From assembly GCF_054482525.1 (NCBI RefSeq), contig NZ_CM137006.1: a stretch of DNA of 64,000 bases; one strand, given 5' to 3'. The notes under the pieces are model-generated. The model ran no database searches and was not told where the DNA came from. It saw only the letters and a list, made by a program, of their open reading frames with translations. Shown here piece by piece: positions 8,460 to 32,664 of the stretch. Position 1 is the stretch's first letter; each line of letters starts with the position of its first letter. Both the position numbers and the translations under genes were made by a program.

Positions 8460-9062
8460 CTATAAAACAGCGTGACGCTGTCTCCCTCTAGCTCTATCCC
8501 AGATGCCGTAAAAACGCCCTGCATTGCTGGCGGTATACCAGACTGTATGACGAATATTGCGATGCCCAAGATAATCCTGGATAAGTCGCGTATCTATTCC
8601 CATATTCGCCAAAGCAAAACCACACGAATGGCGTAACATGTGCGGATGAATCTCCAGTGATAACCCAGCATTACCACCAGAAGTCGAGATAATATGGTAA
8701 AACTGTTGCCGAGAAAGCGGATTCCCCTTACGTGATAAAAATACCCACTCGCTCTCAGCATGCGGATACGAAGTACGGATACTCAACCAGTTTTTTAAAG
8801 CCTGAACTTCTTTGTTCAATAGCGGGTGCGTTGTTGAAAAGCCTTTTTTTAATCGATGGATATATATACACTTTGCCTTAAGATCAATATCCGAAATCCT
8901 CAATCGACAAATTTCACTCGCCCGGAAACCATGAATAAAACAAAGCAAAGTCAGACAATAATTACGTGCTGCATGAGGCCCGGTATTTGCTGCTTTAAGG
9001 AGTGACTCGATTTCACTATGGGTCAGGAAGTTCCTTTTTTTGTTATCAGCCTTATTCTTCAT
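8460..9062 (-). CDS. fimB: Tyrosine recombinase FimB
   Basis: ORF 8460..9092 trimmed to MKNKADNKKRNFLTHSE; paralogue of FimE. Confidence 0.93.
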   Translation of the reverse strand: MKNKADNKKRNFLTHSEIESLLKAANTGPHAARNYCLTLLCFIHGFRASEICRLRISDIDLKAKCIYIHRLKKGFSTTHPLLNKEVQALKNWLSIRTSYPHAESEWVFLSRKGNPLSRQQFYHIISTSGGNAGLSLEIHPHMLRHSCGFALANMGIDTRLIQDYLGHRNIRHTVWYTASNAGRFYGIWDRARGRQRHAVL

Positions 9063-10077
9063 CGTTTTTCCCTTATAATTACAGACGCGCACTAGCTGTG
9101 CTGGGTTAGCAATAATCCAACATTTTAATCCTGATTATGTTTATAAAAGCGAACGTTTGCTTAATAACTAACGTAAGTGGACCAGTTCTTCAGAGTGAAC
9201 TTAAATGGAGTGGCAACAGTTACTTATAATAACGTTGCCATACAAACGCTATGCTCCTGCATGCTATGTACCTTTATATATTTATCAATCTGATACGAAT
9301 CTAATAATAACCCTCATCATTAATGCAACTAATCTTATCTATATATCATGTGATATGTTCTGTAACAAGTAAAATCAACATAAAAAATTCAGCAAAATTT
9401 AATATTCGTTCAACTAGCCGTCTCACATATGACATTATTAGTCAACTCCATTTGCCACAAAATGGCTATTTCATGGAACGCAGTAATTTCTTAGTGGCTA
9501 TTATCATGCTAATGCTTAGGTCCCTAGCGATTATTCCTGGCTGGTTCGTCAGTTTAGGCCATGAGATTGTTACATTCCTTTTTATCATGGAGATATGGGG
9601 GAAAGCAGGAGACGATTTTTTCATCTACATTCGTTGATAAATATGGCTTTGGTCACTAAGACTTAAACCCTCCTCAATCACAGCTGTTCGCCGGGCAATA
9701 CGGCAAACAAACTAAGTGAAACATCATCCTGAAAACACCAACATCAACAAGCCTCTCCAGATCGACTTCAGGAGTGACCAGTTACAAGCCACAAATCAGG
9801 AAACATATTTCATGGTGAGAATTATGATCAGTCTGATGGCGGGTAAACCCTTATTTTCACCCCGCTCACTGAGTTAGCTTGCAAATCTTCCCTTGTTTAG
9901 ACTCTAGATAAATCTCATATAAAACAGGCAATTAAACAAAAACCTTTGGTTTGTGACGGCCTCCACAAATGTTCGTTTAGCTTCACATGGCATCTTCTTC
10001 TTAGAAAAAGATCGACATATTTTGTGACACGAATTGCAAATCTGGTTTTGTTGTATGGATTGCGTGATTTTTGATCT

Positions 10078-13409: not shown

Positions 13410-14154
13410 TACACGCTATTCCTTGTGCAATCAGGCCAGCTCGCAATAAAGGCAGCAACTATGCTTGAAGCCCCTTTCACCGCCGGATAAATAATATCCT
13501 TACGGCAATTGGTAACCGTATAAAATGCTTGATGTTTTGAACTGCCGTTGACGAAGATGAAGTAATCTGCTTTTTTGGCAGCATCCAATAACGCATCAAT
13601 GGCAACGCGATCATTGTTGAGCTCAATTCATAGCGCCGGATACAATTTCAATAAGGCGTCTTTACCACGTTGCGTGGCATTTTTGTAATACTGTAAAACA
13701 CCCGCTTTTTCCCGCGGAGATTCCGATACAACGGAGACGTTACGCTTGCTGGTATGGTTTCTGTCGGGAGGGTACTACCGATATCCTTACAAACGTAGAG
13801 CTGTTCCATCATGCGTGCCAACAACAGCATACGGATATCCAACCGTTCCCAGCGACGTAGGAACATCTCGCGAATGTTAATCCAGTACTGTAGTCGGCGA
13901 TCGCTATCACCAGATTCACAATCATAAAGAACCTCTGCAATATCAAGAGTATACTTGAGAATTTATGTCGATTCATTTTTCGTGCACAACATTTCGATAG
14001 CTTCGAGGGCATCATGGTATTCTTTGTGACTGAAGGTCCATGAAAGTAACGTATCCAGAATAATCCCTGTAGTTGCCAAAATGAGTTGATCACTACACAA
14101 TGATTTGTTTGTACAGAAGGAACGATTATTATATGTTCTTGTAGGGCAGAGCAC
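13397..14154 (-). pseudogene. Degraded gene remnant: four short minus-strand ORFs in different frames at the left island border
   Basis: Four abutting 60-95 aa ORFs with no intact long frame; could be a yjhR-like remnant but its identity is not determinable by eye. Confidence 0.35.
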
Positions 14155-14271
14155 GTTGCTACGGTAACAGCGTTGAAGATAATTTGGTCGAGACTGTAGT
14201 GGCCCAGTTTAAAAGGTAGCAGAATTTTAAAAGTGTCAGGTGCATAGAATTAAAAAAATGGAACTATAAAA

Positions 14272-16005
14272 ATGGAAATCATGTTACCAAAAAACACCTT
14301 ATATGACAGAGAGCAAAATGTCTTTTTTGAAAAGGTTACGGCCTTAATTGGCGAAAATGGTGCTGGTAAGTCCTCGATTTTACAATCCGTATTTATTAAC
14401 TGTTTAACAAAAAAATATCTACCAGAAACAAAGGTTGTTTGTTTTTCTTCTGGACAAAATGAGAAATACTCAACGTACTTCTCTGATTATCTTTCTCATG
14501 AAAGGCAAGCAAATAGAGGTCTTAACTTAGATTGTTGTTATTACGATAAATCATGGTCAAAGTTACTAATATTCATATCCACAATTTGTAAATCAAATGG
14601 TCTTGTTAGAAATTTTTTATGTGAGAAAGGCTATATTGATGTATCAGATGATAAAAATGATGATATATCAAGCAAGCTTACATTGACGGTCCGAGTAAAT
14701 TCGGCTTACGTTAATCGAGTAAAAATGGCATTAGCACAAGAAGAACAAGGTATTGAAAATACTTTAAGGTATTCAGCTTATCATAGGACTTTAGAAAGTT
14801 TCATTAATAATATTGTTAATGCTGATTATGATTTCGAGTCTCCACTTGAAGCTCAAGAGATCTTGCTAACTCATTCAAATTTTTTCAATCCATCATTTGA
14901 GGAAGCAGAAGATTCCTTTTTTGATCCTATCATAACATTTTTCACTCAAGCAGCAGATAATGATTACTTTATAATAAAACCATCATTACAGCTAGAGTTT
15001 AAAAATAATATCGAACTGAATGATATTAGTGATGGGGAATATCAAGTACTCTTTTTATACTCTCTGCTTGATATTTTTGATAGTCCTAATACTTTATTCT
15101 TATTAGATGAGATAGATTCCCATTTACATTACAAGAATATTGAGCTCTTATGGCATCGACTACATAGTATTAATGGTTATGCGATAACAACCACCCATCT
15201 ATTAGACTCAATTACAGCTACTGATAATGATTTTAAAAACTTAAAGATTGTTGATAAAGGAAAAATAAAAGAAGATGATAAAATAAAAACTATAATAGAA
15301 CGTTTATCTGTCTTGACAAGAATATCAGACGTACAGTTCGAAGTGTGTCGTAAACTAGAAAACATAGTATTGATGGATGATTATAATGATTGGACTATTT
15401 TTTATGCCTTAGCAAAGAAAAAAGGACTTGATGTATCAAAGTTAGATGGCCTCCATGCAATAAAACAGTCCTCTGGTTACGATAATTTAAATCAAGAGTT
15501 CGCAAAACCAAAAATAGAGTGGATTAATTCGCTTTCAAATGTAAATACTGATAAGAAAGTCAAAAAAATATTCATGATCTGCGACAAAGATGAGGCTCCA
15601 ATTACCTATCAGAAAGATGGAGTTCAAGTCAATGGAAGTGAATATTCAAAACATATAGCGAAGTTAGAAAATAAAAACAAAAATAAAATATATCTCCTTG
15701 CTTGGAAAAGAAGAGAAATAAAAAACTACTTATTATCTTATACGGCATTGTCTCATCATGGATTTATCGGGCAAATAAACAATGGTGATCTGCCGGCTAA
15801 CAGTTATTTAAAAGAAAACAATCCTGGAGATAATTCAGCAATTAGCCGGCTTAATGTAAAACATTGCATCACAAAAATAATTGATTCTGATGGTATAGGA
15901 TTAGATATCTCAAAACTTTACTCATATATAGAACTTATACCACCTGCTGAGATCAGTGAAGATATAGTGAACATGTACAATTTTTTGGTGGAGAAATTAA
16001 AATGA
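14272..16005 (+). CDS. OLD-family-like ABC ATPase (577 aa) with a possible C-terminal TOPRIM/DUF4435-like region; candidate restriction component
   Basis: Walker A GENGAGKSS, ABC signature-like ISDGEYQ, Walker B LFLLDEID, H-loop TTTHLL, C-terminal DxD-like ICDKDE; about 30% GC; stop overlaps the next start (ATGA). Confidence 0.7.
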   Translation: MEIMLPKNTLYDREQNVFFEKVTALIGENGAGKSSILQSVFINCLTKKYLPETKVVCFSSGQNEKYSTYFSDYLSHERQANRGLNLDCCYYDKSWSKLLIFISTICKSNGLVRNFLCEKGYIDVSDDKNDDISSKLTLTVRVNSAYVNRVKMALAQEEQGIENTLRYSAYHRTLESFINNIVNADYDFESPLEAQEILLTHSNFFNPSFEEAEDSFFDPIITFFTQAADNDYFIIKPSLQLEFKNNIELNDISDGEYQVLFLYSLLDIFDSPNTLFLLDEIDSHLHYKNIELLWHRLHSINGYAITTTHLLDSITATDNDFKNLKIVDKGKIKEDDKIKTIIERLSVLTRISDVQFEVCRKLENIVLMDDYNDWTIFYALAKKKGLDVSKLDGLHAIKQSSGYDNLNQEFAKPKIEWINSLSNVNTDKKVKKIFMICDKDEAPITYQKDGVQVNGSEYSKHIAKLENKNKNKIYLLAWKRREIKNYLLSYTALSHHGFIGQINNGDLPANSYLKENNPGDNSAISRLNVKHCITKIIDSDGIGLDISKLYSYIELIPPAEISEDIVNMYNFLVEKLK

Positions 16006-17909
16006 ACACCTCTTTATTTGAAGATCTACTTACACTAATCAAGAAAAAGAGTTCGATAAGAAATACAGAGCAAGCAGTAGAGTTAATTTCATTATTTATT
16101 TTTTTACATTATATAAAATTATATCTTTATGAAAATGATAAAAGATTTTCAGATATAAAAAACATATCAAGCAACAACATTAATGAAATTAAATATTATT
16201 ACCAGCAACTATATGAAAGTTTTATTTTCTCGATAGATATAAAAAATATAAACCACGACATGCTTGAAAACCTCAGGAGTAAGATAGGTTTTTTAATTAA
16301 TAACATCAATGACCATGAAATAATTAAATATATAGATTATTCTATTTCGCAGATACATTCACTTACAGAATTCCATCAATATGCAAATTCTTATCAATCT
16401 TTAATTCTTAGGATGGTTAATGAATCGGGTCGTTCAGGTGAATATGTTACTCCATCTGCTTTAGTTCAGCTCATGGTTGAAATGTTATCACCTACAGATG
16501 GCACATCAATCTACGACCCAGCATGTGGAACTGGGGGTTTATTAATAGAGTCAGCACGATATATTAAAGGCAACAGTTTAAACAAAAACTTAAATTTAAA
16601 TTATTCCCTTATTGGTAATGACACATCATCATTTGCCTGTCTAATCTCAATTGTTAACCTTTTAATCAATAAAGAATTTAATTTTGAAATAATACTAAAA
16701 GATAGCTTAGATATAAATTATAAGAATAAAAAATATGACTTTGTTTTAACTAACCCACCATTTGGGAAAAAGAGCTGTTGGGATAATATTCATATTGACA
16801 CACATTATAAAGGACCTAATCTAGACTATTACTTCCTGGAGCATGTTATTGACTCTCTCGCTGTTAATGGCAAAGCAGCCATGATATTACCAGAGCGTTT
16901 TTTATATGATGTGAGTGAAGAGTGCATCACTCTTAAAGATAAGATCTTCCAAAATTATAATTTAGATTGTATTTTATCTATACCGTCAGGTGCATTGCTT
17001 CCTTACACTGCAGTAAAATTATGTATTCTTTTTATAAGTAATTCTGGCCCAACAGATAGAATATTTTTCTACAATTTAAATAATGGTGAAAAATACTCAC
17101 GTACAAATATTATAAAATTCGATGATTTTATAGATTTTTTAGAGTCAGCAAAAAATAGAACAATAACTGAACACTCCTGGATTATCAATATTAGTGATAC
17201 ACCTTCATCTTATAACTTACTCTTAAAAGATAAAGAGCGAAACTCATATGAGTTTCTTAGTGATTCTATAGTTAACATTGAACAGACAATACGTAATAAT
17301 GAATTATTACTAACAGAGTTGTCTTTATTAAGAGAAAAAATAGCAATCTTAGAGTCAACAATAAAAAATCATTCGCATGAATATGAATTTGAGAGACTTA
17401 AAGTTGGAAATATTGCAATAGTAAAATCCGGAAATTTATTACAAAAAAACAGGCTGTTACCCACTGGACCAATTCCTGTATACGGTGGAAATGGAGTTAT
17501 TGGATATAATAATGAAGCAATGGAAAATGGTGAAAATATTATTATTGGTAAGGTCGGAGCTCTTTGCGGAAACGTTCGGTATGTTCAAGGTGATATTTGG
17601 GTGACAAATAACTCATTAATTATTAAGAATTATTCACCAAATAAAGTTTTAACACCCTACCTTGCAAAATTATTATCTACTTTAAACTTAAGAAGGCTCG
17701 CCGTTGGTACCGCTCAGCAATATTTAACCACGACACAAATAAAAAATGTAGAAGTTAGTATTCCACCTTTAACGACCCAGTATAAATTAAATATTTGGCT
17801 TGATGAGTTAGATAATACGCTTGAACAATATAATAATCTCATTGAAAAAATAATGAATGATAAGCGAGAACTTAAAGAGAATTTGTATAAAGGTCTTTTA
17901 ATAGAATAG
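16002..17909 (+). CDS. Gamma-class N6-adenine DNA methyltransferase fused to an HsdS-like target-recognition domain (635 aa)
   Basis: Motif I DPACGTGGLL followed by motif IV NPPFG; C-terminal region resembles type I specificity-subunit TRDs; AT-rich; coupled to the upstream ATPase. Confidence 0.75.
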   Translation: MNTSLFEDLLTLIKKKSSIRNTEQAVELISLFIFLHYIKLYLYENDKRFSDIKNISSNNINEIKYYYQQLYESFIFSIDIKNINHDMLENLRSKIGFLINNINDHEIIKYIDYSISQIHSLTEFHQYANSYQSLILRMVNESGRSGEYVTPSALVQLMVEMLSPTDGTSIYDPACGTGGLLIESARYIKGNSLNKNLNLNYSLIGNDTSSFACLISIVNLLINKEFNFEIILKDSLDINYKNKKYDFVLTNPPFGKKSCWDNIHIDTHYKGPNLDYYFLEHVIDSLAVNGKAAMILPERFLYDVSEECITLKDKIFQNYNLDCILSIPSGALLPYTAVKLCILFISNSGPTDRIFFYNLNNGEKYSRTNIIKFDDFIDFLESAKNRTITEHSWIINISDTPSSYNLLLKDKERNSYEFLSDSIVNIEQTIRNNELLLTELSLLREKIAILESTIKNHSHEYEFERLKVGNIAIVKSGNLLQKNRLLPTGPIPVYGGNGVIGYNNEAMENGENIIIGKVGALCGNVRYVQGDIWVTNNSLIIKNYSPNKVLTPYLAKLLSTLNLRRLAVGTAQQYLTTTQIKNVEVSIPPLTTQYKLNIWLDELDNTLEQYNNLIEKIMNDKRELKENLYKGLLIE

Positions 17910-17989
17910 ATCACAGTAGCAGGGTGTCCACAATACACCCTGCTACTGGTTGCAAGTAAGTTGCAATATCTGTACTGCTGAAGCTACGA

Positions 17990-20900
17990 TTAATAATGCT
18001 CCTCAATATACCCATACGCCTTCTGGAACAACTCTTTATCTTTCCCTAGTCCAAACTGGGCCAAGGTCAGCAAAAGCGCCTTTTGGATTTCGCGCGGGCC
18101 ACTGTTAGAATTTTGCCAGCCATCAAAGCGGGTAGCTTTCACAATTTTATCAATTTGCTCTACAACATCACCGATTAACTTAGGGGTAGTTTCCGGACGT
18201 GTTTCGAGGAAAAGCTTAGTCAACGCCTGTTTATTATCAGCTTCAGTTACTGGACGCTCGCCCGTTTCGCGCTCGGCTTGAACGGTATCTTTCGCTGCAT
18301 CCAACAGGCCTTTCAACCAGTCAATGGCCTTGATAACACCAGCTTCATAGTCCTGACGCAGTTTTTCAAGGCGCTCGCCCAATGCCACAAATTTAGGATC
18401 ATGACTGCCGCGCAAACGTCCCATAAGATCAATCTCCAGGCGTTTAGCACGTTGTTCCTGCTCTTTAGCGGTCAGGGTAAAAATAGCGTGCTCGTCCATG
18501 ACCAACTCGTCAATATCATCGCGAATACGATTGATATCAGTATGCTCATGGATCATCTTGATTGTTTCGGGGCCAAGGGCAGCCCAAACAAGCGCACCTG
18601 TCTGCCCTACCGGACGCACCGATTCATAAATTTGCGCCAGCCATTTATAGTCCTGACGATAAGGGGTCAAAAAAGGGTCTGGGTTGATAGCTGACCATAA
18701 CTTGGATAACACACCAAAGCTGGCAGCGAATTCATCGCGCTTCTCGTTGGTCGGCAGGCATTCCTGCGCGGCCATAATACCTTCAAAACCAGCTATGGAC
18801 CGATCCACACCAGGGAAGAAGGACAAACATTTATTCAGTTGTAACGGCAATAGCTCTTTAAATGCCTCAATTCCCTCTACAACTCCTTCAATTTCTTCAG
18901 GGTTATAGGCCAGAGCGGTACGCAGATTTTCGAAAACGCCGAGGTAGTCGATAATTAATCCCATGTCCTTGCGTACAGTATCGGTTTCGTACAGCCGGTT
19001 AGTTCGGCACATGGCCTGCAGAAGGGTATGATCGCGTAGAGGCTTATCGAGGTACATGCAGTAGCAAATCGGGGCATCAAAGCCCGTAAGCAGCTTGGCG
19101 GTTACGATAATAAGCTGTAATGGATATTCAGGATCTTTAAAGCACTCAATTAGATCCTTTTGCACCTGCTCTTCGGCATCGATGTGCTGCCAGCGTTCAA
19201 AATCGACTTGTTTGACAGGCAGCTCCAACTCATCATGCCATTTAAGCCAATCCTTGTTGAGCTTGTCTTTTTTGCCACCCTCTTCAACTTTAATCGGAGC
19301 CTGGTCAACGTTCATAACCACTTCAACTGCATCAAAACCAAGCTTTTCACCGAGCAAATAATACATCTGCACACAGGCTTCGCGATCGTATACCACAACC
19401 ATGCCTTTCATCTTTTTCGGCATAACATGGTTGGTAAAATGCTCAGCAATATCATTACTCACCGCAGCCATACGTCTGGGAGATTTCAGCATAATAGCCA
19501 GCTTGCCGGCACGTCTGGACAATGCTGCTTTTTCTTCTTCATCCAGGTTGTTTTCGGTAGCCAGTTGCTCGAACTCTTCATTGATGGCATCACGATCCAC
19601 TCGGAGTTCAGCCAGCCGAGGTTCGAACTTCACCGGGTTAGTTGCGCCATCCCGGATCGACTGCTTATAGCTATAGCGGCTCATATAGCGACCTGGATCT
19701 TCTTCGGCACCGAACAATTTGAACGTATTACGATCAATGCCAGAAATCGGAGTACCAGTCAGGCCATAGAAGTGGGCATTGGGCAACGCCCAGCGCATTT
19801 TCTCGCCTAATCCCCCTTCCTGTGTACGGTGAGCTTCGTCAACCAACACAATGATATTGTCCCGGTTGTTCAGGCCATTAGGGTTGCTATCGTCAATTTC
19901 GATATCTTTAAATTTAAAGATGGTGGTGATTAAAATGCCACGGCTGTCTTGTTCAATGTATTCACCCAACTTTTTGCAGCTTTGCACTTTAATCAGATTC
20001 TTAACGTCGGCTCCACCAAAGGTCTCGTTAATTTGGCTGTCCAGATCTCGCCGGTCCACAACGATAAGTACCGTCGGGTTTTTTAACGCATTATCGGCAC
20101 GTAGCATTTTGGCGGCGTAAAGCATCAACAAGGATTTACCCGATCCCTGGAAATGCCAAATAAGACCTTTTTTTGGATAGCCTCTGCGAACACGCTCAAC
20201 AATTTGTTTTGCAGCTTCAAATTGCGGATAACGCGGCAAGATTTTAACGCGTTTAGGTGGAGTATTTTTGCCCGTTTTGACGGTTGAAAATAATGCAAAA
20301 GATTCCAGTAACTGCAATAAGGTTTGCGGATTTAACAAACTCTCACAGCTATTGAGTACCGATGCCAGACCCGGCAAAATTTCATCACGAAGCTCAGTAT
20401 TATGCCAGGGTCCCCAGTCTTTAACTCGGGCATTAATGGCTCCATAGGCAAAGGTTTTACCTTCGCTGGCAAAGCACAGCAAGTTAGGTACAAAGAAAGA
20501 TTCAACATTTTTCCAGTAGTACTTTTTGCCACCCATGAAATCGGCAGCACCGTCTTGCCAGGTCACGCTGGGGCGTGTTGCGGTTTTAACTTCGCCTACT
20601 ACCAGTGGCATGCCGTTCACATAAAGAACAATATCAAAATAGACTTCAGTGGCCGCGATATAGTGAACCTGCTGCGCCACTACAAAGTGGTTGTTCTCTA
20701 TATTGTCAAAATCAATCAGATTGATGGTGATATGGTCGCCATTCTTACCAAAAGGCAAGGTTTTGTCGGCCATCAACCATTCCTGGAAGTTTTCATTGGC
20801 CTTTACCAAGCCGGTATGGCGGGCTTCTAAAACCACTCCTCGCAGTTTGTAAATGACCTCATCGGCATAGTCAGGCTGTCTGCCGATATCAGGGTTTAAC

Positions 20901-21070
20901 GAACAAAGCGCGTCTTTTAGCCACTCATCAACGAATATATCCTGCGCTTGTTTAGGCAGGTTTTCACCGTGGCAGTAAGTCCACTTGACTCCGCTTAAAC
21001 CTTTTAAACGGTCGATAATTCCATTTTCTGTGACGGTTTGTTCGTTAAACATTTTATATTTCCTTATCAA
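17990..21070 (-). CDS. hsdR: Type I restriction enzyme R subunit HsdR (alternative start at 21052)
   Basis: 1026 aa; Walker A GSGKS and DEAH box (VDEAHRTQ); recognisable HsdR N-terminal nuclease region; operon with hsdM/hsdS. Confidence 0.9.
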   Translation of the reverse strand: MIRKYKMFNEQTVTENGIIDRLKGLSGVKWTYCHGENLPKQAQDIFVDEWLKDALCSLNPDIGRQPDYADEVIYKLRGVVLEARHTGLVKANENFQEWLMADKTLPFGKNGDHITINLIDFDNIENNHFVVAQQVHYIAATEVYFDIVLYVNGMPLVVGEVKTATRPSVTWQDGAADFMGGKKYYWKNVESFFVPNLLCFASEGKTFAYGAINARVKDWGPWHNTELRDEILPGLASVLNSCESLLNPQTLLQLLESFALFSTVKTGKNTPPKRVKILPRYPQFEAAKQIVERVRRGYPKKGLIWHFQGSGKSLLMLYAAKMLRADNALKNPTVLIVVDRRDLDSQINETFGGADVKNLIKVQSCKKLGEYIEQDSRGILITTIFKFKDIEIDDSNPNGLNNRDNIIVLVDEAHRTQEGGLGEKMRWALPNAHFYGLTGTPISGIDRNTFKLFGAEEDPGRYMSRYSYKQSIRDGATNPVKFEPRLAELRVDRDAINEEFEQLATENNLDEEEKAALSRRAGKLAIMLKSPRRMAAVSNDIAEHFTNHVMPKKMKGMVVVYDREACVQMYYLLGEKLGFDAVEVVMNVDQAPIKVEEGGKKDKLNKDWLKWHDELELPVKQVDFERWQHIDAEEQVQKDLIECFKDPEYPLQLIIVTAKLLTGFDAPICYCMYLDKPLRDHTLLQAMCRTNRLYETDTVRKDMGLIIDYLGVFENLRTALAYNPEEIEGVVEGIEAFKELLPLQLNKCLSFFPGVDRSIAGFEGIMAAQECLPTNEKRDEFAASFGVLSKLWSAINPDPFLTPYRQDYKWLAQIYESVRPVGQTGALVWAALGPETIKMIHEHTDINRIRDDIDELVMDEHAIFTLTAKEQEQRAKRLEIDLMGRLRGSHDPKFVALGERLEKLRQDYEAGVIKAIDWLKGLLDAAKDTVQAERETGERPVTEADNKQALTKLFLETRPETTPKLIGDVVEQIDKIVKATRFDGWQNSNSGPREIQKALLLTLAQFGLGKDKELFQKAYGYIEEHY

Positions 21071-22241
21071 TCATAGCTTGGCGCAGTTGAATAATTTTCC
21101 CCAAGGATTCATTGTGCCTATAAATATTCTCATACGAACACTTAAACGTATTAATGATTGATGCTTGAATATCGAAGGGAGGAATAGGAATTTGAATTTT
21201 TAAAAAGTTATCTTTATTTATTTTCTTCATACTTCCGCTAGTTCCAGCAGCAATACCTTGAATAGCTCGACGGCCATATGGAGACATCAGATAGTACATT
21301 AAAAACTCTTTTTTAATAAATTTTTCGTCAACAGCCAATCTCCACATCGTGTCTGGGAAAATCGTATTCCCATTGCCAGTCGATCCTTTATATTTTCCAA
21401 CTAAACCAACCAACTCCGCTGTATTAGAACGAGAGATTAACAAATCACCATCATTGCATGTTTTTCCTTTTAAAAAATGATCTTCTGTAATATTTTTTAA
21501 AGTAGTTTCTCTGAATCCTGATTTCGACAAACTATTTAGGTTCAGGACATAGTACCCAGTCCCGACTGCGGTTTCAACAGGAGAATATCCCCCTTCTGGA
21601 GAATCAATTAAAACATCTTTAATAGAACCAAAAGTCCATCCAACCGGAAGAGGAACACATTTATTCTCCCTCGAATCAAAGTAGTTATCAAAAGTCCGTA
21701 GACCAATAGCATATAATAATCTTTTAGCTGCTTTGAGAGCACTTAAATATAGAAGTTCTTTCTTTGCTAACGAATCAAAGATTATTAATGACGAGTATTG
21801 CTGTTCAATGCTCGGTATATTAACTTCTAGTTTATTTAAATCACTCCATTTTATTCGCGATGATAGCGAGCCGGCGGAATTTGCAATCACCTTTTCCATA
21901 AAAGAGGTTGATTGCATCAAGTGGGGTAAGTACCCATCCAATAAGTAGTTGTTTTTCCTTGGTTTAATTACCATTGCATCAGCAGAGCAAATACCATTAA
22001 TAGGGCTCACCGACACCCTTTTTAAATATGTATTTCGTCTACTAAAAATTATTTCGCCACACTTTACCTTAAAGGCTTGTGTTTTCAATTCAACGTCAGC
22101 CCCCCAATCATGAACATAAAAATAACCAGATTTCAAATGTTCCAACCCAATAAAATGCTTAGCATCGTCGCTTGTTGGGGAGATTCTAACCATAACCTGT
22201 TCAGCAAGATCACCAAATGTAACATTTCTTTTATTATTCAT
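21054..22241 (-). CDS. hsdS: Type I restriction-modification specificity subunit HsdS (start uncertain; ORF extends to 22292)
   Basis: About 400 aa, consistent with a two-TRD specificity subunit; lies between hsdM and hsdR with overlapping ends. Confidence 0.8.
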   Translation of the reverse strand: MNNKRNVTFGDLAEQVMVRISPTSDDAKHFIGLEHLKSGYFYVHDWGADVELKTQAFKVKCGEIIFSRRNTYLKRVSVSPINGICSADAMVIKPRKNNYLLDGYLPHLMQSTSFMEKVIANSAGSLSSRIKWSDLNKLEVNIPSIEQQYSSLIIFDSLAKKELLYLSALKAAKRLLYAIGLRTFDNYFDSRENKCVPLPVGWTFGSIKDVLIDSPEGGYSPVETAVGTGYYVLNLNSLSKSGFRETTLKNITEDHFLKGKTCNDGDLLISRSNTAELVGLVGKYKGSTGNGNTIFPDTMWRLAVDEKFIKKEFLMYYLMSPYGRRAIQGIAAGTSGSMKKINKDNFLKIQIPIPPFDIQASIINTFKCSYENIYRHNESLGKIIQLRQAMIDKEI

Positions 22242-23739
22242 TATTATATTTCTCTCTATCAATTTCATAGCCAATGCTATCCAAGCTATCAAACAATACC
22301 TTGATATTTCTTTTGAGTTTTACGCTACTGACTTTCCATGATTCGATAGCATGCTGAATATCATTCATTTTGACATTGTTTTGAGATTTCACATAAAGTG
22401 AAATCGATAAATTATAGAAATTTTCTTTAATAGCTTCGATATCCACTAAAGCGGTTATGTCGTTTTTTTTCTCCGGATTAAAATAAGCCTCGCATAATAC
22501 TTCCAAATCATCATCAGATAGGCGACTATGGGCACGTTCACGGGTAACATACTCAACCCCGTTGATAAACAAAACCTTATTTTTGCGTTCAGCAGGTTTA
22601 TTGCAATTAAGCACCACCAAGCAAGATTCCATCGGCGAGTTGTAAAACAGATTTGGTCCCAAACCAATCACCGCTTCGATTATGTCGGATTCAATCACCT
22701 GTTTACGAATGGCTTGTTCAGAATCACGGAACAGTACACCATGCGGCCAGAGCATGGCAGCACGACCGGTGTCGGGTTTTAAACTTTTGATTATATGGGT
22801 ATAAAACGCATAATCAGCACAACCTTGTGGAGGCACGCCATAGAGATTACGCCCATAGGGATCGGCTGCAAACTTGTCACGATTCCATTTCTTAATGGAG
22901 TATGGTGGGTTAGCAAAAATCACATCAAACTGCTTGAGCCGATCGTTTTCAATAAACTTTGGCTCAGCCAAAGTATCACCACGCAGCACATCAAACTCTT
23001 CAATATCATGCAGGAACATATTCATACGAGCAATAGCGGAAGTCAGCAGGTTCACTTCCTGACCATAAAGGTGCACAGAGCGCCACTCTTCTCCTCTTGC
23101 ACGAAGATCCATCACTGCATTTAGCAACATCCCTCCAGTGCCACACGTTGGATCATAGGCTGTTTCACCCGGTTTTAAGCCCATAATGCGCGTCATTAAA
23201 TGCACGACTGTTCGGTTGGTGTAGAACTCTGCTGCCGTATGACCGGAATCATCAGCGAACTTTTTAATCAGGTATTCGTAGGCCTCACCAAGATCATCCT
23301 GAGCGACAGATTTAATACCGAGCGGTATTTTACTGAAATGTTCAATCAGATCAGCCAGCAGATGATCGGGCAGGCGCTCTTTATTGGTCCACTGCGCATC
23401 ACCGAAGACGCCATGTAAACGCGGATTATTGGCTTCAATTAGTCGAAGCGCATTCTGGATCGCTTCACCAATGTTTTTACTGGTATTGCGTACCTTTTCC
23501 CAACTGGCTTCAGAGGGAATATTGAAACGGTGAAACATCGGCATGGCGGCATATTCAGCATCACCTTCATGGAGTTCCAGCGCTTCGTTATATTCTTCCA
23601 GATAGACATCTGACAGGCGTTTGTAAAACAGCAACGGGAAGATATACTGCTTGTAGTCTGATGCGTCAATTTGGCCACGAAGAAATTCGGCGGCTCCCCA
23701 GAGCAGCTCTTCCAGCTTTTTATTACTCATAGTACTCAT
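22234..23739 (-). CDS. hsdM: Type I R-M methyltransferase subunit HsdM (copy 1, 501 aa)
   Basis: Motifs DPTCGTGGML and ANPPYS; HsdM-like N-terminal domain. Confidence 0.9.
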   Translation of the reverse strand: MSTMSNKKLEELLWGAAEFLRGQIDASDYKQYIFPLLFYKRLSDVYLEEYNEALELHEGDAEYAAMPMFHRFNIPSEASWEKVRNTSKNIGEAIQNALRLIEANNPRLHGVFGDAQWTNKERLPDHLLADLIEHFSKIPLGIKSVAQDDLGEAYEYLIKKFADDSGHTAAEFYTNRTVVHLMTRIMGLKPGETAYDPTCGTGGMLLNAVMDLRARGEEWRSVHLYGQEVNLLTSAIARMNMFLHDIEEFDVLRGDTLAEPKFIENDRLKQFDVIFANPPYSIKKWNRDKFAADPYGRNLYGVPPQGCADYAFYTHIIKSLKPDTGRAAMLWPHGVLFRDSEQAIRKQVIESDIIEAVIGLGPNLFYNSPMESCLVVLNCNKPAERKNKVLFINGVEYVTRERAHSRLSDDDLEVLCEAYFNPEKKNDITALVDIEAIKENFYNLSISLYVKSQNNVKMNDIQHAIESWKVSSVKLKRNIKVLFDSLDSIGYEIDREKYNNE

Positions 23740-25235
23740 ACCTCGAACCCTTCTTTGATAAGCAGGGCCTCCAGCTCCTCTTCTGCTTTTTCCAGCTCAG
23801 CCAGCTTCCGTTGAAAATCTTTGAGCGCCTCTTCCACAGTGATGGTTTCTTCTTCGAGTGGCTTTTGCACATAACGAGCAATATTTAGATTGAAGTCATT
23901 TTCTTCAATCTCCTTCAGAGGAACCCAGCGTGCAACGCCTTCGATTTCTTTTGCATCTGGCCCTTGTTGCGCCTGGTCATGATAGATTTGGTATATTTCA
24001 TCGGCCTGCTTGTTGGACAGCGTATTCTGCGCACGTCCCTTGGTATAGATTTCTTCAGCATTGATGATCAATACATGATCTTTATGCGCGGCCGGACGTG
24101 ATTTACGCAGCACCAAAATACACGCAGGAATCCCAGTTCCATAGAACAGGTTGGAAGCAACACCAATAATCGCCACAATGCGATTCTCTTGCAGTAATTT
24201 GGTTCGAATTGCCCCCTCTGCGCCGCCACGAAACAGCACACCATGAGGTAATACGACTGCCATACGTCCATTGTCGTTAAGTGAAGCAAACATATGCTGC
24301 ACCCAGGCAAAATCACCATTTGTTTTAGGCGCCAGGCCATATTGCTTACGGCCATAGGGATCGTTCGACCACAGATCGTATCCCCATTCTTTTAAGCTAA
24401 ACGGTGGGTTGGCAACAACGCAGTCAAAGGTTTCTAAACGATCGCTTTTTAAAAATTTAGGTTCGCGTAAAGTATCCCCTCGGACAATATCGAAATCTTC
24501 CTGTCCATGCAGGAACAGATTCATACGCGCAATAGCTTCCGTCGTTAAGTTCTTTTCCTGACCCTTGATTTTTAGTAAACGCGGATCACCACCATTTTCT
24601 TTTACATGGTGGATGGTCTCAAGCAGCATACCACCGGTACCACAGGCGGGATCGTAGACACTCTCACCGGCTTTTGGATCAAGAATGTTAACCATCAAAC
24701 GAACGATAGTTCGTGGGGTATAGAACTCACCTGCTTTCTTATTGGCTTTGTCTGCAAAGCGTTTGATCAGATACTCGTATGCGCGCCCCATATCATCGTC
24801 ACGGACACTAGAAACGCCAAGGTTCACCTTATTGAAGTGATTGAGTAACGTAGCCAGTAACTCATCAGAAAGGCGTTCTTTATTGGTCCAGCTGGCATCG
24901 CCAAAAATGCCATGCAGTTTAGGGTTTGCCAGTTCTATACCACGGAAGGACTCTTTTAAAGCCTGACCGATGTCCTTGGTCTCAGCGAAAACATCGCGCC
25001 AGTGGCAATTTTCAGGTATCTGAATACGGTGAAACATCTTGCCCTTGGCAAGCTCTGCATCCCCAACGCTCTCCATCGCATCAGCAAATTCTTCGTCATA
25101 CACGTCACAAATGCGCTTGAAGAACAAGATGGGGAAAATGTACGTTTTGTAATCTGACGCATCAATGGGCCCTGTAATAATATGGGCTGCATGCCATAGA
25201 TGGGCCTCGAGATCTTTTAGGTTAATCAGTGTCAT
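23736..25235 (-). CDS. Second, divergent HsdM-like N6-adenine methyltransferase (copy 2; extended ORF reaches 25337)
   Basis: Motifs DPACGTGGML and ANPPFS; about half of residues identical to copy 1 by eye; ATGA overlap with copy 1. Confidence 0.85.
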   Translation of the reverse strand: MTLINLKDLEAHLWHAAHIITGPIDASDYKTYIFPILFFKRICDVYDEEFADAMESVGDAELAKGKMFHRIQIPENCHWRDVFAETKDIGQALKESFRGIELANPKLHGIFGDASWTNKERLSDELLATLLNHFNKVNLGVSSVRDDDMGRAYEYLIKRFADKANKKAGEFYTPRTIVRLMVNILDPKAGESVYDPACGTGGMLLETIHHVKENGGDPRLLKIKGQEKNLTTEAIARMNLFLHGQEDFDIVRGDTLREPKFLKSDRLETFDCVVANPPFSLKEWGYDLWSNDPYGRKQYGLAPKTNGDFAWVQHMFASLNDNGRMAVVLPHGVLFRGGAEGAIRTKLLQENRIVAIIGVASNLFYGTGIPACILVLRKSRPAAHKDHVLIINAEEIYTKGRAQNTLSNKQADEIYQIYHDQAQQGPDAKEIEGVARWVPLKEIEENDFNLNIARYVQKPLEEETITVEEALKDFQRKLAELEKAEEELEALLIKEGFEV

Positions 25236-25478
25236 TGTTGTCTCTTTTCGATCCTGCAGTGCTTGAACTCTCAGCAACTCATGGATTTCACAGTAAAAAA
25301 GCAAGCAAAGCGATTCCACAACCACCTGAGCGTTCAATACGTATGACGCCTTTACCCAAGTTGCTTAAATCAAGGAAATTGCCAGAGATAATACTCTGGC
25401 ATCAGAATGATACCAAGTTGAAGGGCTGATTTCCGCATCAATACCTTGTGGTAATAGGGGATTACTCTTTTACCCTTA

Positions 25479-26046
25479 TTGGCGCAAAATGGCGGCATTT
25501 ACTCATTTCTCCATCGGAGCATCTTACGCGCTATAACCACTCTCGTTTTTTCCTATTCCCATGCAGATGAAGCACTACGCAATGAACTTGAGAAGCATCT
25601 CTCCCCGCTGAAGCGAACCGGGAAGATCACAACATGGCACGATCGCCGCATCGTTCCTGGTCAGGAGTTCGAACGTCAGATCGACCACTATTTTTCGCAA
25701 GCAGATATCATCCTGATCCTGATCCTGATCCTGATCAGCAGTGACTTTATTGCTTCTGATTACTGCTATCAGGTAGAGATGAAAAACGCACTGGAACGGC
25801 ATGACCGGGGCGAGGCGGTGGTCATTCCGGTAATTTTAAGAAACTGTGCATGGCATCAGTTATAATTCGGCAGCATTATGGCGGCGACTATCGACGGTAA
25901 ACCCATCACTAAGTTTGCCACCCACGATGAAGGCTACGTTCAGGTCGTCGAGGCCGTCTCGCGTGCCATTGCCCGGATGGAAGCCAAAAAACTACAGCAA
26001 ACCATACATATCCCTTCACCGGCTCCGGCGAATCCGATCTTTTAGG
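25479..26046 (+). pseudogene. TIR-domain gene interrupted by an in-frame TAA stop at 25863-25865; the same frame continues to TAG at 26044-26046
   Basis: TIR-like signature ...VFSYSHADEAL...SSDFIASDYCYQVEM...VIPVILRNCAW, then stop, then ...FGSIMAATIDGKPITKF... in the same frame. Confidence 0.6.
25710..25733. repeat. (ATCCTG)4 hexanucleotide repeat inside the TIR gene, encoding an ILILILIL tract
   Basis: Read directly from the sequence. Confidence 0.9.
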
Positions 26047-26445
26047 GAGTAGATTCCGTTTTTACACCGCGTTCAAGCAACCTTACTCTATCTGTTATAG
26101 CCAGGATAATGTTGTTCGAAACAGTATTAACGAAATTGTAAGCCTTGCTGATAACGGCCAGACTCTTGGTTTTCGTGCTCTGATGGGAGGCTTCAGTCGT
26201 GGAACTTCACGAGACGAACTATTGACCAATGAAGGTATGTCGGAACATCTCTGGGAAATGTTCTTCGGGCTAATCAAGCAAAGAATGTCCCGATAATTTG
26301 CCATATCACAGTCGGGCATACTGCCCGATTTTTGTGCTGTCATTATTGGCAATATCTCAATAGGCGTTGAGAAATGGTGCAATTTAATCTTGCCAGAGCG
26401 CTGTTACTTGGGGACGAAATGAATGGGCTCCTGCTGTAGTTACAG

Positions 26446-26480: not shown

Positions 26481-27476
26481 TCATGCAGGCAAATACGTTT
26501 TCTTAAGCGGCACCAACAGCTTAGTTTCAATATCCACCTGCTCATAGTTTTCCACTAACGCGCGTACCAAATCGTCCAGCGTCCATAGCGTCAACGGGAT
26601 TGTAGAACGATCGGCCTCATAACGCGCATCCTTGCTGAATCCGCCGGTACTAACATACAGCCCGCGATCGTCTTTATGACGGCCACCGATAAAGCTACGG
26701 ATTTGCTGGCTGCTCATCTGTTCCCGCCGGTGCTTCACCTCAACAATAATGCGCGGATTTTCAAACCCAAATCCGTCAGGCGAAGCAATGATGTCTTTCC
26801 CACGGTCAGCACCCGCAGGCGATACCTGAGTTTTATATCCCATGCTGCGTAACACGCCAGCGACCAGATTCTGCATCTCATCCCAGTCGAGACGGTTGAT
26901 ACGATCCTTGATGCCTTCAAAAGCGATCATTTCCATGTCGCGCAGAGGATTAGAAACGACCTCATCCTCTTCACCTGAAACAGGTACTTCCGGCACGATA
27001 TCTGAGACAGGCTTATTGCCCTGCACTAATTCATTCACAGCAAAATCAGGCACCTGAAAAACTGTCAGCGTTGAACCAAGGGTGTTTCTGGTTGCATCAC
27101 TCAGACTATCGCGCTTAATCTCTTCCGCATTCCACTTCACTTTACGGGCGATGCCCATGCCATCTTCAAGCCACTCGGCATGAAACTCAAAATCTGACGC
27201 TATTTTCCCTATTAAATAGGTCCGATTAGAAGGTGAATAAGTGATAGCCCAGTCGCCTTTCTGCATTTCATTCACAAAGCGCCAGACCTGAGAAGCTCCA
27301 GAACGAACTGTGCCTGGCTTAGTCTGTGGCTCAAGCTCCTGATACCGGGTAAACAACTGCTCTCTTGAGCATCCAGGTTTCACATAGGGAGCGAGCTGCG
27401 ACCAACCAATTGCAACAACCTGTTTGTCTCTGAAGTCGTCGTACAATTTTCCGCCATCACCGCGGATCATCCACAT
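26481..27476 (-). CDS. Mrr-like (type IV-like) restriction endonuclease with an uncharacterised N-terminal domain
   Basis: C-terminal PD-(D/E)xK-type signature ...GKDIIA...RIIVEVKHRR...QQIRSFIG typical of Mrr catalytic domains; start chosen at MWMIRGDGG (ORF extends to 27644). Confidence 0.65.
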   Translation of the reverse strand: MWMIRGDGGKLYDDFRDKQVVAIGWSQLAPYVKPGCSREQLFTRYQELEPQTKPGTVRSGASQVWRFVNEMQKGDWAITYSPSNRTYLIGKIASDFEFHAEWLEDGMGIARKVKWNAEEIKRDSLSDATRNTLGSTLTVFQVPDFAVNELVQGNKPVSDIVPEVPVSGEEDEVVSNPLRDMEMIAFEGIKDRINRLDWDEMQNLVAGVLRSMGYKTQVSPAGADRGKDIIASPDGFGFENPRIIVEVKHRREQMSSQQIRSFIGGRHKDDRGLYVSTGGFSKDARYEADRSTIPLTLWTLDDLVRALVENYEQVDIETKLLVPLKKTYLPA

Positions 27477-30500: not shown

Positions 30501-31113
30501 CGTGCTCAGCGAGTTCATATTGCTCAGGATTTTTAATCCAGTCGCCGGCAACGTTCTTCAGCAGCCTCTCTGAATCATCCAGATATTGATGCCACTCCTG
30601 CTGCAAGGCTGCATATCGTGCTTCCCGTTCTTCATCCGTTTCGGCAGTCTTATCAATGCTGTCATCAAAGTTGATAGAGAACGAGGTATGGATTGTCTTG
30701 TATTTGTCATACTGCCCAATCTCACCAATCGAAAATGCTCCTTTTGGCAAAGGTTCAAGCAGGTCTCTGGGAATGGAGGTCGCTGGCGTCGGATATAAAA
30801 AACCCTCACGGCTGAGCAAGGCTGGCGTCACTAGCGGGGTAACAATATCAGGTGCGCCTGCGGAACGGTCCTTACCATGCTGCAGTAACCGAAAATAAAC
30901 TTTTGGGCGCAAGACGACATCGACCGTTTCGACATCGTCTTTTTCTCCCTCAAAAAATTTACTGACAATCGCTTCGTCAAGACGTCCCGCCGCTATCCCA
31001 TGCCAGTGAGTGAAATTTTTGGCGTCTTTCCGTTCAAAACTGCCCTTTCCTGACTCAGCATCCGCAAGCGAGTTGCGCCAGTATGAGGCAAACCCTAAAG
31101 CATTTTCATCCAT
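27598..31113 (-). CDS. Upf1-like SF1 helicase fused to a C-terminal phospholipase-D-family nuclease (1171 aa; Mokosh type II-like)
   Basis: Walker [11 protein letters not shown], Walker [21 protein letters not shown] and [16 protein letters not shown] helicase motifs; C-terminal HxK(x)4D motif [19 protein letters not shown]. Confidence 0.7.
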
Positions 31114-31884: not shown

Positions 31885-32664
31885 TTATCTCAGTAAATTC
31901 TTCCGATGCCACTCCAGATAACAATACGATTCAACAGAAAACGCCTTTATTTTCTCCGGCAACAAACATTGCTCTTTAACGCTAATATCCAGCGCCTTAC
32001 TAATTAATAAATGCCCATCGTTCTCAAACGAAATCCATCCCTGATCGAATAGAATATCAATATGCGCAGCCAATATAATTCCATTAAAAGGATCAAGCCG
32101 TTCATTCCCATTCTCGCAGGCAGCCCACGGCTTTATATGGCTGGTACGCAGTAAAGGTGCAAACGTCGTTCCCGTAACAGGACATGCCGGATACAACATA
32201 AGACAATTTTTCCGAAAGGTACCTTGCCCCAGCCGTGCCGCAATCAGCTGCTCGCGTACGGTATCTTCAATACTTTTATCCTGCTGAATAGCAAGACAGT
32301 CACGTTGTGCCTGTTCATCTCCAGCAGAAGATATTAACGAAAGAACGCGCTGCTCAATCGCACTGTCTGAAAGCACACTCATTCGCTGATACACACGCTG
32401 CGCTGAATGAGAAAGCGCAGCAGGAGCGCCCTGCTCGTCAAGCCAGCCGACACGCACATCACTAAGCCAGGAATCAAAACGGTCACGACTATTTTTCAGA
32501 CTATTGTGAAACTCGCTGGCAGTTTTGCCCGCTCCAAATCGAGGATAAAACAAGGCAAAAGCCTCTTTCCATTTCTGAACACCCAGTCCTGCGGGTGGTT
32601 GAGATTTTCCGTACTTCGACAAATACCACGCCACTTCAAGCAAATCGTCTTCAGAGCTATTCAA
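31885..32664 (-). CDS. HNH-motif endonuclease-like protein (259 aa)
   Basis: C-terminal CPVTG...SHIKPW...NG..L...H..FD.GWISF pattern characteristic of HNH nucleases. Confidence 0.5.
   Translation of the reverse strand: MNSSEDDLLEVAWYLSKYGKSQPPAGLGVQKWKEAFALFYPRFGAGKTASEFHNSLKNSRDRFDSWLSDVRVGWLDEQGAPAALSHSAQRVYQRMSVLSDSAIEQRVLSLISSAGDEQAQRDCLAIQQDKSIEDTVREQLIAARLGQGTFRKNCLMLYPACPVTGTTFAPLLRTSHIKPWAACENGNERLDPFNGIILAAHIDILFDQGWISFENDGHLLISKALDISVKEQCLLPEKIKAFSVESYCYLEWHRKNLLR

Follow-up and report, generated by a model that had tools for sequence, protein, structure and literature searches.

A two-gene locus in Escherichia coli

The window analyzed here is a stretch of 64,000 nucleotides from NCBI RefSeq assembly GCF_054482525.1 (contig NZ_CM137006.1). 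It derives from an Escherichia coli chromosome and is, over the region of interest, 100% identical to strain PCN033. The region contains two adjacent genes on the + strand. Gene 1 (14272..16005) encodes a protein of 577 amino acids combining an ABC ATPase with a Toprim-like C-terminal domain, as recognized from the open reading frame (ORF) and its translation, Pfam, an AlphaFold2 model and Foldseek. Gene 2 (16002..17909) encodes a protein of 635 amino acids in which a methyltransferase is fused to a specificity domain (hereafter the M-S protein), as recognized from the ORF, Pfam and PADLOC. We suggest, with a rough probability of 0.45, that the pair might be a two-gene anti-phage cassette that guards or backs up type I restriction in a manner similar to PrrC and PARIS, rather than a self-contained restriction-modification (R-M) system.

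The two genes overlap by the nucleotides ATGA (16002-16005), with the ATG of gene 2 (16002-16004) lying over the TGA of gene 1 (16003-16005). A GGAG motif is located 9 nucleotides upstream of the gene 2 start. Gene 2 is thus predicted to be translationally coupled to gene 1 via the ATGA overlap. The GC content falls to 0.26-0.33 over positions 14500-18000 compared with 0.43-0.52 in the flanks. In RefSeq, gene 1 is named 'AAA family ATPase' (WP_000404909.1) and gene 2 'N-6 DNA methylase' (WP_001097954.1). A preliminary description of the locus had reported the two ORFs, their overlap, the AT-richness and a set of protein motifs, and all of these were found in place.

An ABC ATPase with a diverged C-terminal domain

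The ABC ATPase occupies residues 1 to about 335 of the gene 1 protein. Pfam recognizes AAA_21/SMC_N over residues 12-301, as well as AAA_15 and a weak DUF2813 match. The ATPase motifs are GENGAGKSS (residues 27-35), ISDGEYQ (252-258), LFLLDEID (275-282) and TTTHLL (306-311). Walker A, signature, Walker B and H-loop (GENGAGKSS, SDGEYQ, LLDEIDSH and TTTHL, respectively) are invariant across 41 relatives. The AlphaFold2 model of the full-length protein has a predicted local distance difference test score (pLDDT) of 88.8, and its best Foldseek matches in the PDB are TsOLD (6p74), GajA and the retron-Eco8 OLD protein, followed by PtuA and AriA. The nearest solved ATPase by sequence is PtuA, and the nearest by fold are TsOLD and GajA. 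The Pfam assignments and the full-length OLD fold matches bear out the initial call of an ABC/OLD-type ATPase. PADLOC matches of gene 1, seen as the best 25 of 54, are led by AriA, mad3, PtuA, AbiLi and GajA, and these five matches are all partial. The top score is 53 bits for AriA (residues 22-297) and covers the ATPase part only.

The C-terminal domain (residues about 355-577; 15334..16002, + strand) is a putative Toprim-type nuclease. It contains the motifs VLMDD (366-370), ICDKDE (436-441) and LAWKRREIKNYL (476-487). Its acidic residues are arranged as D369-x3-D373-W374 at beta1, D438-x-D440 at beta3 and W478-RRE482-I-K-N-Y486-L at beta4. These residues are invariant down to 24% identity and appear to lie at Toprim metal-ligand positions. 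Remote relatives carry the beta1 motif LIDGxxDW, comparable with EGxxD/E of Toprim domains, and W478...RRE482-I-(K/E)-N-Y-L at beta4. The AlphaFold model of the domain alone has a pLDDT of 87.3, and the longest fold matches of the domain are Toprim nucleases, AriB among them. Foldseek with the isolated domain against the PDB returned no significant match, and the top hits were RadA/Rossmann-like folds.

Profile searches with the C-terminal domain were largely empty. Pfam recognized no C-terminal family in the gene 1 query, in 13 C-terminal sequences or in 20 diverse full-length members, and a single RloB hint appeared in 1/20 members (E 0.027). Searches of PADLOC and PHROGs at E<=10 gave no match for the domain, and no PDB chain was matched in a profile search. 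Searched with the domain's own profile, a set of 1.84 billion proteins clustered at 50% identity yields only 137 representatives. Full-length proteins (about 565-747 amino acids) have the domain at the C-terminus, and many other matches are short fragments. In hhalign comparisons with P2 Old and with 22 aligned Old homologues, gene 1 matches collinearly between Walker B and Toprim beta1 at 71-79% probability, with IVLMDDYND of gene 1 set on VLLVEGKTE of Old. The C-terminal domain alone against the Toprim domain of P2 Old gave a non-significant 0.4% probability, and a forced alignment that places CDRD on Old D453-x-D455 is without statistical weight. The family PF20469 (OLD-like_TOPRIM) is found in all 120 listed P2 Old homologues and is absent from gene 1 and 20 diverse members.

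The best reading of gene 1 is that of a highly diverged OLD-like ABC ATPase carrying a Toprim-like, putative nuclease domain. The nuclease assignment is plausible but weak because it rests on fold and motif geometry. The suggestion of a TOPRIM/DUF4435-like module in the preliminary description stands as far as this geometry goes, but not as a profile match to either family. The weakness of the Toprim assignment leaves room for a role outside defense, in which the C-terminal domain is not a nuclease and the ATPase is an assembly, repair or regulatory accessory of type I methylases (e.g., in restriction alleviation or epigenetic control). Cran1 provides a precedent as an OLD-family ATPase with a non-defense function (PMC12796447). 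Invariant acidic residues that appear to sit exactly at the Toprim metal-site positions argue against such a role, as do the patchy horizontal distribution, low GC content, defense island location and hypervariable ATPase alleles described below. We consider a non-defense role very unlikely.

A fused methyltransferase and specificity protein

The M-S protein is a gamma-class N6-adenine methyltransferase (N6-MTase) fused to one HsdS-type target recognition domain (TRD), as first proposed from the bare sequence and now recognized by the Pfam families N6_Mtase (residues 130-399, E 5.9e-42) and Methylase_S (a single match, 462-617, E 2.1e-15). PADLOC likewise identifies MTase_I (9.8e-64) and Specificity_I (3.6e-26). 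The catalytic core spans residues 130-400 (16389..17201, + strand) and includes motif I, DPACGTGG, at residue 172 (DPACGTGGLL, 172-181) and motif IV, NPPF, at residue 251 (NPPFG, 251-255). The single type I TRD and a conserved C-terminal helix occupy residues 461-617 (17382..17852, + strand). HsdM_N (PF12161) was undetected in the M-S protein. Clustering at 90% identity groups the M-S proteins, all 620-643 amino acids long, into about 54 clusters that form a discrete family, beyond which match scores fall from 1e-103 to 1e-44. Their core is nearest to HsdM of EcoAI-family operons with an embedded ATPase (clade B, below) and not to the neighboring hsdM product.

From the single TRD we infer an (M-S)2 dimer acting on a symmetric bipartite site. 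A dimer of this kind could be part of a new R-M-like system, in which (M-S)2 methylates a bipartite host site and the ATPase-nuclease docks on the same methylase core in the place of HsdR and cuts DNA carrying unmethylated sites. The predicted translational coupling of the genes is in line with this explanation, and enzymes of the OLD family are DNA nucleases (PMC10568477). Given the evolutionary evidence presented below, we nevertheless regard a new R-M-like system as rather doubtful.

An obligate pair tied to type I operons

The pair, together with 860 bp upstream, is present in 102/5426 complete E. coli genomes, always on the chromosome and at least 95% identical. Beyond E. coli, the family occurs in Salmonella, Klebsiella, Vibrio, Acinetobacter and Aeromonas. 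Genomic contexts were surveyed at 37 loci from GTDB contigs (one genome per species), to which 15 loci were added from the encoding contigs of seven homologues and one plasmid record. The gene directly after the ATPase is a type I-like methylase in 36/36 GTDB loci with a readable downstream gene, and the gap is usually 4 bp or less or replaced by an overlap. The co-occurrence of the two genes expected at the outset is thus seen across genomes. No relatives were found among IMG/VR viral contigs and only 4/72,556 plasmids carry any. A phage or satellite origin was rejected on these grounds.

Two clades differ in how the ATPase is associated with type I genes. In clade B, the ATPase (about 598 amino acids) is embedded in the order hsdR-ATPase-hsdM-hsdS, with gaps of 1-4 bp and variable cargo following. 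This order is found in 25/37 GTDB loci as well as in Cronobacter and on the Shewanella baltica plasmid pS22302, and it looks like the ancestral arrangement. RefSeq assigns the pS22302 hsdR to the 'EcoAI/FtnUII family', and its product shares 96% identity with the clade B HsdR encoded at locus L002. A megablast search for the clade B operon gave no match in complete E. coli genomes. In clade A, which includes the form in the window, the gene after the ATPase encodes a fused M-S protein of 620-644 amino acids. Outside type I operons, the ATPase retains M and S in fused form but not R. The trees of the ATPase and the M-S protein agree within clade A.

Clade A pairs are mostly located right behind the hsdR gene of a complete and unrelated type I system. 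Examples of the adjacent systems are one with two HsdM proteins in Vibrio, Aliivibrio, Thalassotalea and Oceanospirillaceae, one with an HsdR of 1086 amino acids in Acinetobacter and Pseudoalteromonas, and another type I family in Klebsiella and Raoultella, where the locus is flanked by mcrBC and symE. The pair is hence found beside three unrelated type I families and in McrBC/SymE regions of the immigration-control type. In E. coli and Salmonella, the pair and a two-HsdM type I block are convergent. At three loci (Psychrobacter L041, Pectobacterium L052 and Cellvibrio L053), an intact pair is found on its own, without any hsdR gene within 10 kb. The occurrence of the pair on its own, with no other nuclease nearby, is a point in favor of the R-M explanation. 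The two-HsdM type I system is present in 109 E. coli genomes and occurs without the pair in strain 19A14 (L047, NZ_CP147046.1 4660645-4681902). There, a system 92% identical lies in a leuX/tRNA-Leu island with an integrase and a small helix-turn-helix gene. The two blocks are therefore separable.

The two genes form an obligate and horizontally mobile pair that is evolutionarily tied to type I operons. The E. coli form has kept M and S as one protein and has lost hsdR. Such linkage is difficult to reconcile with independent co-travellers, i.e., a single-gene OLD-like nuclease (class 1 or similar to HEC-04) next to an orphan or remnant type I methylase. Genes located within type I operons often act as autonomous systems, such as TgvAB (PMC11411939) and DarTG2 (PMC12255303), and the HEC and PDC candidates of PADLOC are further examples of autonomous embedded systems (bioRxiv 10.1101/2024.01.29.577857). 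The hsdR-hsdM slot of clade B operons also holds other cargo and shows ATPase allele replacement. Independence would leave the methylase directly downstream of the ATPase in every readable locus unexplained. An ATPase leaving type I operons takes along M and S, but not R, with a start/stop overlap, and the M-S family and the ATPase clade that it accompanies are similarly small and discrete. Hence, we consider independent co-travellers improbable.

Conserved target recognition and variable ATPases

Sequence conservation in the M-S protein is highest in the TRD. Over 1067 M-S pairs with less than 60% overall identity, mean identity is 53.0% in the TRD, 45.2% in the core, 26.1% in the N-terminus and 20.6% in the linker. 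The TRD of the pair is 83% identical between E. coli and Salmonella, and the DNA of the whole pair region is 95-100% identical among E. coli strains (mostly 98.8%). Mean identities within clade B are 85.5% for HsdR, 88.0% for HsdM, 74.5% for the ATPase and 36.6% for HsdS. The neighboring hsdS (21054-22292) is the sole segment of the type I block that fails to align, whether E. coli is compared with Salmonella or E. coli strains with one another. In the latter comparison, the block aligns in two pieces at 83% or 77% query coverage. This variation is classical TRD swapping and provides an internal control against which the conserved TRD of the pair can be judged. A TRD that never swaps, next to hsdS genes that vary, is unexpected if the pair is an R-M system. 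A conserved TRD could also suggest one fixed target, a point in favor of a non-defense role.

The state of the methylase differs between two subclades of clade A. In subclade A1, to which the window belongs, motif IV (NPPF) is intact in 52/52 members. Motif I (DPACGTGG) is intact in the same 52/52 despite 45% core identity, which favors the R-M explanation. Methylase catalysis in A1 thus appears clearly to be under purifying selection. In the E. coli subclade, the methylase probably remains an active enzyme with one conserved and probably palindromic site. In subclade A2, motif IV reads SG[VI]PFG in 6/6 members, with the catalytic Asn and the first Pro lost, and motif I is retained as DPAMGTG(R/G). 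The A2 loci with a fused M-S protein (L035, L036, L037, L038, L041 and L044) come from Oceanospirillaceae, Vibrio AND4, V. sinaloensis, Thalassotalea, Psychrobacter and Pseudoalteromonas shioyasakiensis. Five of these six loci retain the full set of ATPase and Toprim motifs, and the ATPase gene of the sixth (P. shioyasakiensis L044) is disrupted. Loss of the Asn in the (D/N/S)PP(Y/F) motif abolishes catalysis in gamma-class N6-MTases. Judged by these substitutions, the A2 partners are probably catalytically dead and do not methylate. If so, methylation is therefore not what makes the nuclease tolerable in A2, and self-protection would not be the general logic of the family.

The absence of the catalytic Asn next to an intact ATPase-nuclease means that the R-M explanation fails for A2. 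The broken ATPase gene beside an intact M-S gene in L044 matches the usual order of decay in R-M systems and favors that explanation. The division of labor proposed in the preliminary description, with a nuclease that restricts and a methylase that protects, could still hold for A1, where NPPF is intact throughout, but the loss of Asn in A2 and the conserved TRD speak against it as a general rule. An R-M-like mode is viable for subclade A1 (E. coli). The clade B operon encodes a true HsdR, so that a second restriction subunit would be redundant there.

ATPases vary far more than the operons that carry them. In L002, L040 and L055, HsdR is 96% and HsdM 94-97% identical, but the ATPases are only 45-47% and HsdS 31-33% identical. 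Such divergence in near-identical backbones indicates that the ATPase is an exchangeable and fast-evolving cassette. Alleles diverged to 45% identity in backbones 95% identical are unexpected for the core catalytic subunit of an R-M system. A component that meets phage proteins is expected to evolve in this way and the fast-evolving ATPase would fit such a role. The hsdR-hsdM junction of EcoAI-family operons acts as a cargo slot, with three ATPase alleles in L002, L040 and L055. L040 contains an additional ORF of 345 amino acids (8960-9997) between hsdR and the ATPase. We take this ORF, from its sequence and without a search, to encode a YhcG-like PD-(D/E)xK protein. Cargo downstream of hsdS in these operons also varies and includes a protein of 672 amino acids of unknown type, RhuM, SIR2 and a pair of 380 and 586 amino acids.

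Relationship to described systems

The closest described relatives of gene 1 are members of the OLD family. Both consist of one polypeptide of about 580 amino acids with an N-terminal ABC ATPase followed by a four-stranded alpha/beta domain (predicted in the case of gene 1), with acidic residues after beta1 and DxD after beta3, and the best full-length structural matches are OLD proteins. The gene 1 family differs in lacking PF20469 or another Toprim profile and in having Asp at the position of the Toprim Glu. The C-terminal domain is also found only in the gene 1 architecture. OLD proteins are divided into class 1 (solitary), class 2 (with UvrD-like GajB), class 3 (retron), class 4 (split AriA/AriB) and class 5 (with a Sulfolobales membrane partner), and none of the five has a methylase partner (PMC10568477, PMC12796447). 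The obligate type I methylase consequently fits none of classes 1-5. No helicase, reverse transcriptase or noncoding RNA partner was found beside gene 1, either at the locus or at the surveyed loci. Gabija was rejected because the GajA matches in PADLOC cover the P-loop only (about 29 bits) and the pair has no UvrD-like neighbor, in agreement with the initial observation that a helicase partner is missing.

PrrC and PARIS are guardians of restriction, triggered by Stp and Ocr (PMC12707154). PARIS consists of the ABC ATPase AriA and the DUF4435 Toprim protein AriB (cf. AbiLi/AbiLii and Campylobacter RloA/RloB). These are split proteins in contrast to the fused gene 1. PARIS also has no methylase partner, whereas the gene 1 system has its own and is not borne by phages or satellites. 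The C-terminal domain of gene 1 gave no AriB/DUF4435 match even at E<=10, and NCBIfam returned no PARIS match. Membership in PARIS was rejected because the AriA match is partial. Type I loci also host genes of the RloA/RloB type and numerous other embedded systems (PMC12065111, PMC11411939, PMC12255303).

PrrC of the type IC system EcoprrI offers a parallel as an ABC-type NTPase-effector within a type I operon, as in clade B, and presumably controlled by the methylase or restriction complex. Embedding of this kind is limited to clade B, and the pair in the window adjoins a type I operon without being inside it. PrrC carries an anticodon nuclease effector instead of a Toprim-like domain, and the E. 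coli form of the pair has a private M-S protein and no hsdR of its own. No PrrC or RloC models appear among the best 25 of 54 PADLOC matches or among the 18 NCBIfam matches. The embedding of PrrC in a type I locus makes it the mechanistic template for the guard model.

The candidate HEC-04 is an ABC ATPase-TOPRIM fusion in Hma, and its defense activity requires Walker A and metal-site residues (Payne et al. 2024, bioRxiv 10.1101/2024.01.29.577857). HEC-04 resembles gene 1 as a single-polypeptide ABC ATPase-TOPRIM protein embedded in a larger defense operon. The host system is Hma rather than type I, and gene 1 differs in having an obligate methylase partner. HEC-04 is absent among the best 25 of 54 PADLOC matches of gene 1. 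PADLOC-DB v2, which holds the HEC and PDC candidates, and NCBIfam contain no full-length model for gene 1. The M-S protein shares with type I methyltransferase cores (M2S1), half-HsdS and fused M-S proteins the gamma-class N6_Mtase domain, motifs I and IV, the Methylase_S TRD and the conserved helix. Unlike in type I systems, one chain combines M with a single TRD instead of a separate HsdS with two TRDs, and the TRD is conserved rather than diversifying. The pair also lacks a cognate HsdR and has an ABC ATPase as partner, and the neighboring hsdR serves its own M and S.

Several other systems were rejected. MADS is a locus of eight genes in contrast to the two genes here, and the match to NCBIfam MAD2 reaches 59 bits against a cut-off of 720, with partial PADLOC matches to mad2 and mad3. 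Septu, Menshen and BREX PglX gave partial ATPase or MTase matches only. No paper was found in the literature that mentions WP_000404909 or WP_001097954. Searches of the literature, PADLOC and NCBIfam returned no description of the pairing, in line with the preliminary description, and a prior in silico mention by Krishnan et al. is possible. We suggest that the pair is best filed as a variant within the ABC-ATPase/Toprim defense superfamily, set apart by its methylase-core partner and its origin inside type I operons.

Genomic surroundings

The pair lies after nanS and is the first element of a defense island. A stretch of 860 bp that separates nanS from the ATPase gene (13410-14271) is confined to the 102 pair-carrying E. 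coli genomes. This region contains only short ORFs on the - strand (63-94 amino acids). An origin of the upstream stretch as a remnant of the ScoMcrA/HNH gene located upstream in Salmonella was rejected for lack of any similarity. A candidate promoter region (14073..14183, + strand) was defined by consensus scan only and contains two weak sigma-70-like matches (14073-14101 and 14156-14183). The scan of the upstream region was not above its shuffles, with 31 matches compared with 24.5 expected. Downstream, between the convergent M-S and hsdR genes, a hairpin with a perfect 14-bp stem (CAGTAGCAGGGTGT / ACACCCTGCTACTG) can be read from the sequence at 17914..17949. A terminator-like match on the - strand overlaps this hairpin, which is likely a bidirectional terminator.

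A complete type I R-M system, separate from the pair but linked to it, occupies 17990..25337 on the - strand according to the ORF list and RefSeq annotation. It begins 80 bp past the stop codon of the M-S gene and is convergent with the pair. The early remark that no conventional restriction endonuclease is present is accurate within 14272-17909, but not for the wider locus given this proximity of an hsdR gene. The system consists of hsdR (ORF 17990-21070; RefSeq 17990-21052), hsdS (ORF 21054-22292; RefSeq 21054-22241), hsdM (ORF 22234-23739; RefSeq 22234-23730) and a second hsdM (ORF 23736-25337; RefSeq 23736-25235), all on the - strand. Both HsdM paralogues retain motifs I and IV. The order M-M-S-R is also seen in Vibrio, Aliivibrio, Thalassotalea and Salmonella, in some cases with one more gene separating the two M genes.

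The island continues with a frameshifted TIR gene (about 25533-26296, + strand). It is followed on the - strand by a 'restriction endonuclease' of 329 amino acids that matches the candidate system PDC-S02 (26481-27470, PADLOC E 1.5e-80), MkoC of Mokosh type II with 1171 amino acids (27598-31113, PADLOC E=0 over the full length) and an HNH gene (31885-32664). From about 33000 to 64000 (PCN033 4821627-4852627), the window contains cargo of the CP4 type. This cargo includes an antirestriction protein, RadC, a YeeU/CbtA toxin-antitoxin system and copies of the insertion sequences IS2, IS100 and IS3. It also includes two genes of the inovirus Gp2 type, an H-NS paralogue, a gene of the dGTPase family and thymidylate synthase. 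The antirestriction gene thus shares the island with several restriction systems.

Discussion

Our favored explanation of the pair as a guard of type I restriction assigns separate roles to the two proteins. The (M-S)2 dimer would be the platform that keeps the ATPase-nuclease inactive and would also be its sensor. The methylase core would thereby be a regulatory and sensing platform for the ATPase-nuclease. The trigger might be phage anti-restriction proteins aimed at type I methylase cores, such as DNA mimics of the Ocr/ArdA type or Stp-like peptides. Alternatively, abnormal engagement of the methylase core on invading DNA could act as the trigger. Either event would release or activate the ATP-gated Toprim nuclease, which would then cleave DNA or transfer RNA (tRNA) and abort the infection. 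In the E. coli subclade, methylation may keep the platform quiet on host DNA.

A guard function would explain why the ATPase is embedded in type I operons, why the pair persistently adjoins unrelated type I systems and why the TRD does not diversify. It would equally explain the catalytically dead partners and the hypervariable ATPase. Support comes from the obligate linkage, the PrrC-like embedding, the arms-race pattern of the ATPase, the conserved TRD and the loss of Asn in A2. The defense island context (Mokosh II, PDC-S02 and the TIR remnant), the OLD/GajA/Toprim fold and the precedents in the literature point in the same direction. Several points weigh against a guard function. Intact motifs I and IV in all of the E. 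coli-subclade members are a requirement of R-M but not of a pure decoy. The adjacency to type I systems could reflect clustering in defense islands or a preference for insertion sites. Finally, the two-HsdM type I system can occur in the absence of the pair.

The M-S protein could also be an integrated decoy. In such a scenario, a captive methylase core with a conserved DNA-binding groove would bait Ocr or ArdA and thereby switch on the ATPase-nuclease, and A2 would represent the fully specialized form. We regard this as possible but rather unlikely. If true, the pair would constitute a new class of OLD systems guarding type I restriction. If instead the R-M explanation holds, an ABC ATPase-Toprim nuclease would have taken the place of HsdR in a type I-like system, which would also be new.

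If the guard model is right, a widespread gammaproteobacterial family would be added to the ABC-ATPase/Toprim defense superfamily, with a C-terminal domain that is not covered by any Pfam, PADLOC or PHROGs profile. The pair would also be unprecedented in this superfamily in having a type I methyltransferase core as sensor partner. The family provides natural controls, including embedded split M and S, fused active M-S, fused dead M-S and swapped divergent ATPase alleles. The pair would then make it possible to test directly how phage anti-restriction is sensed by bacteria and how type I R-M is backed up.

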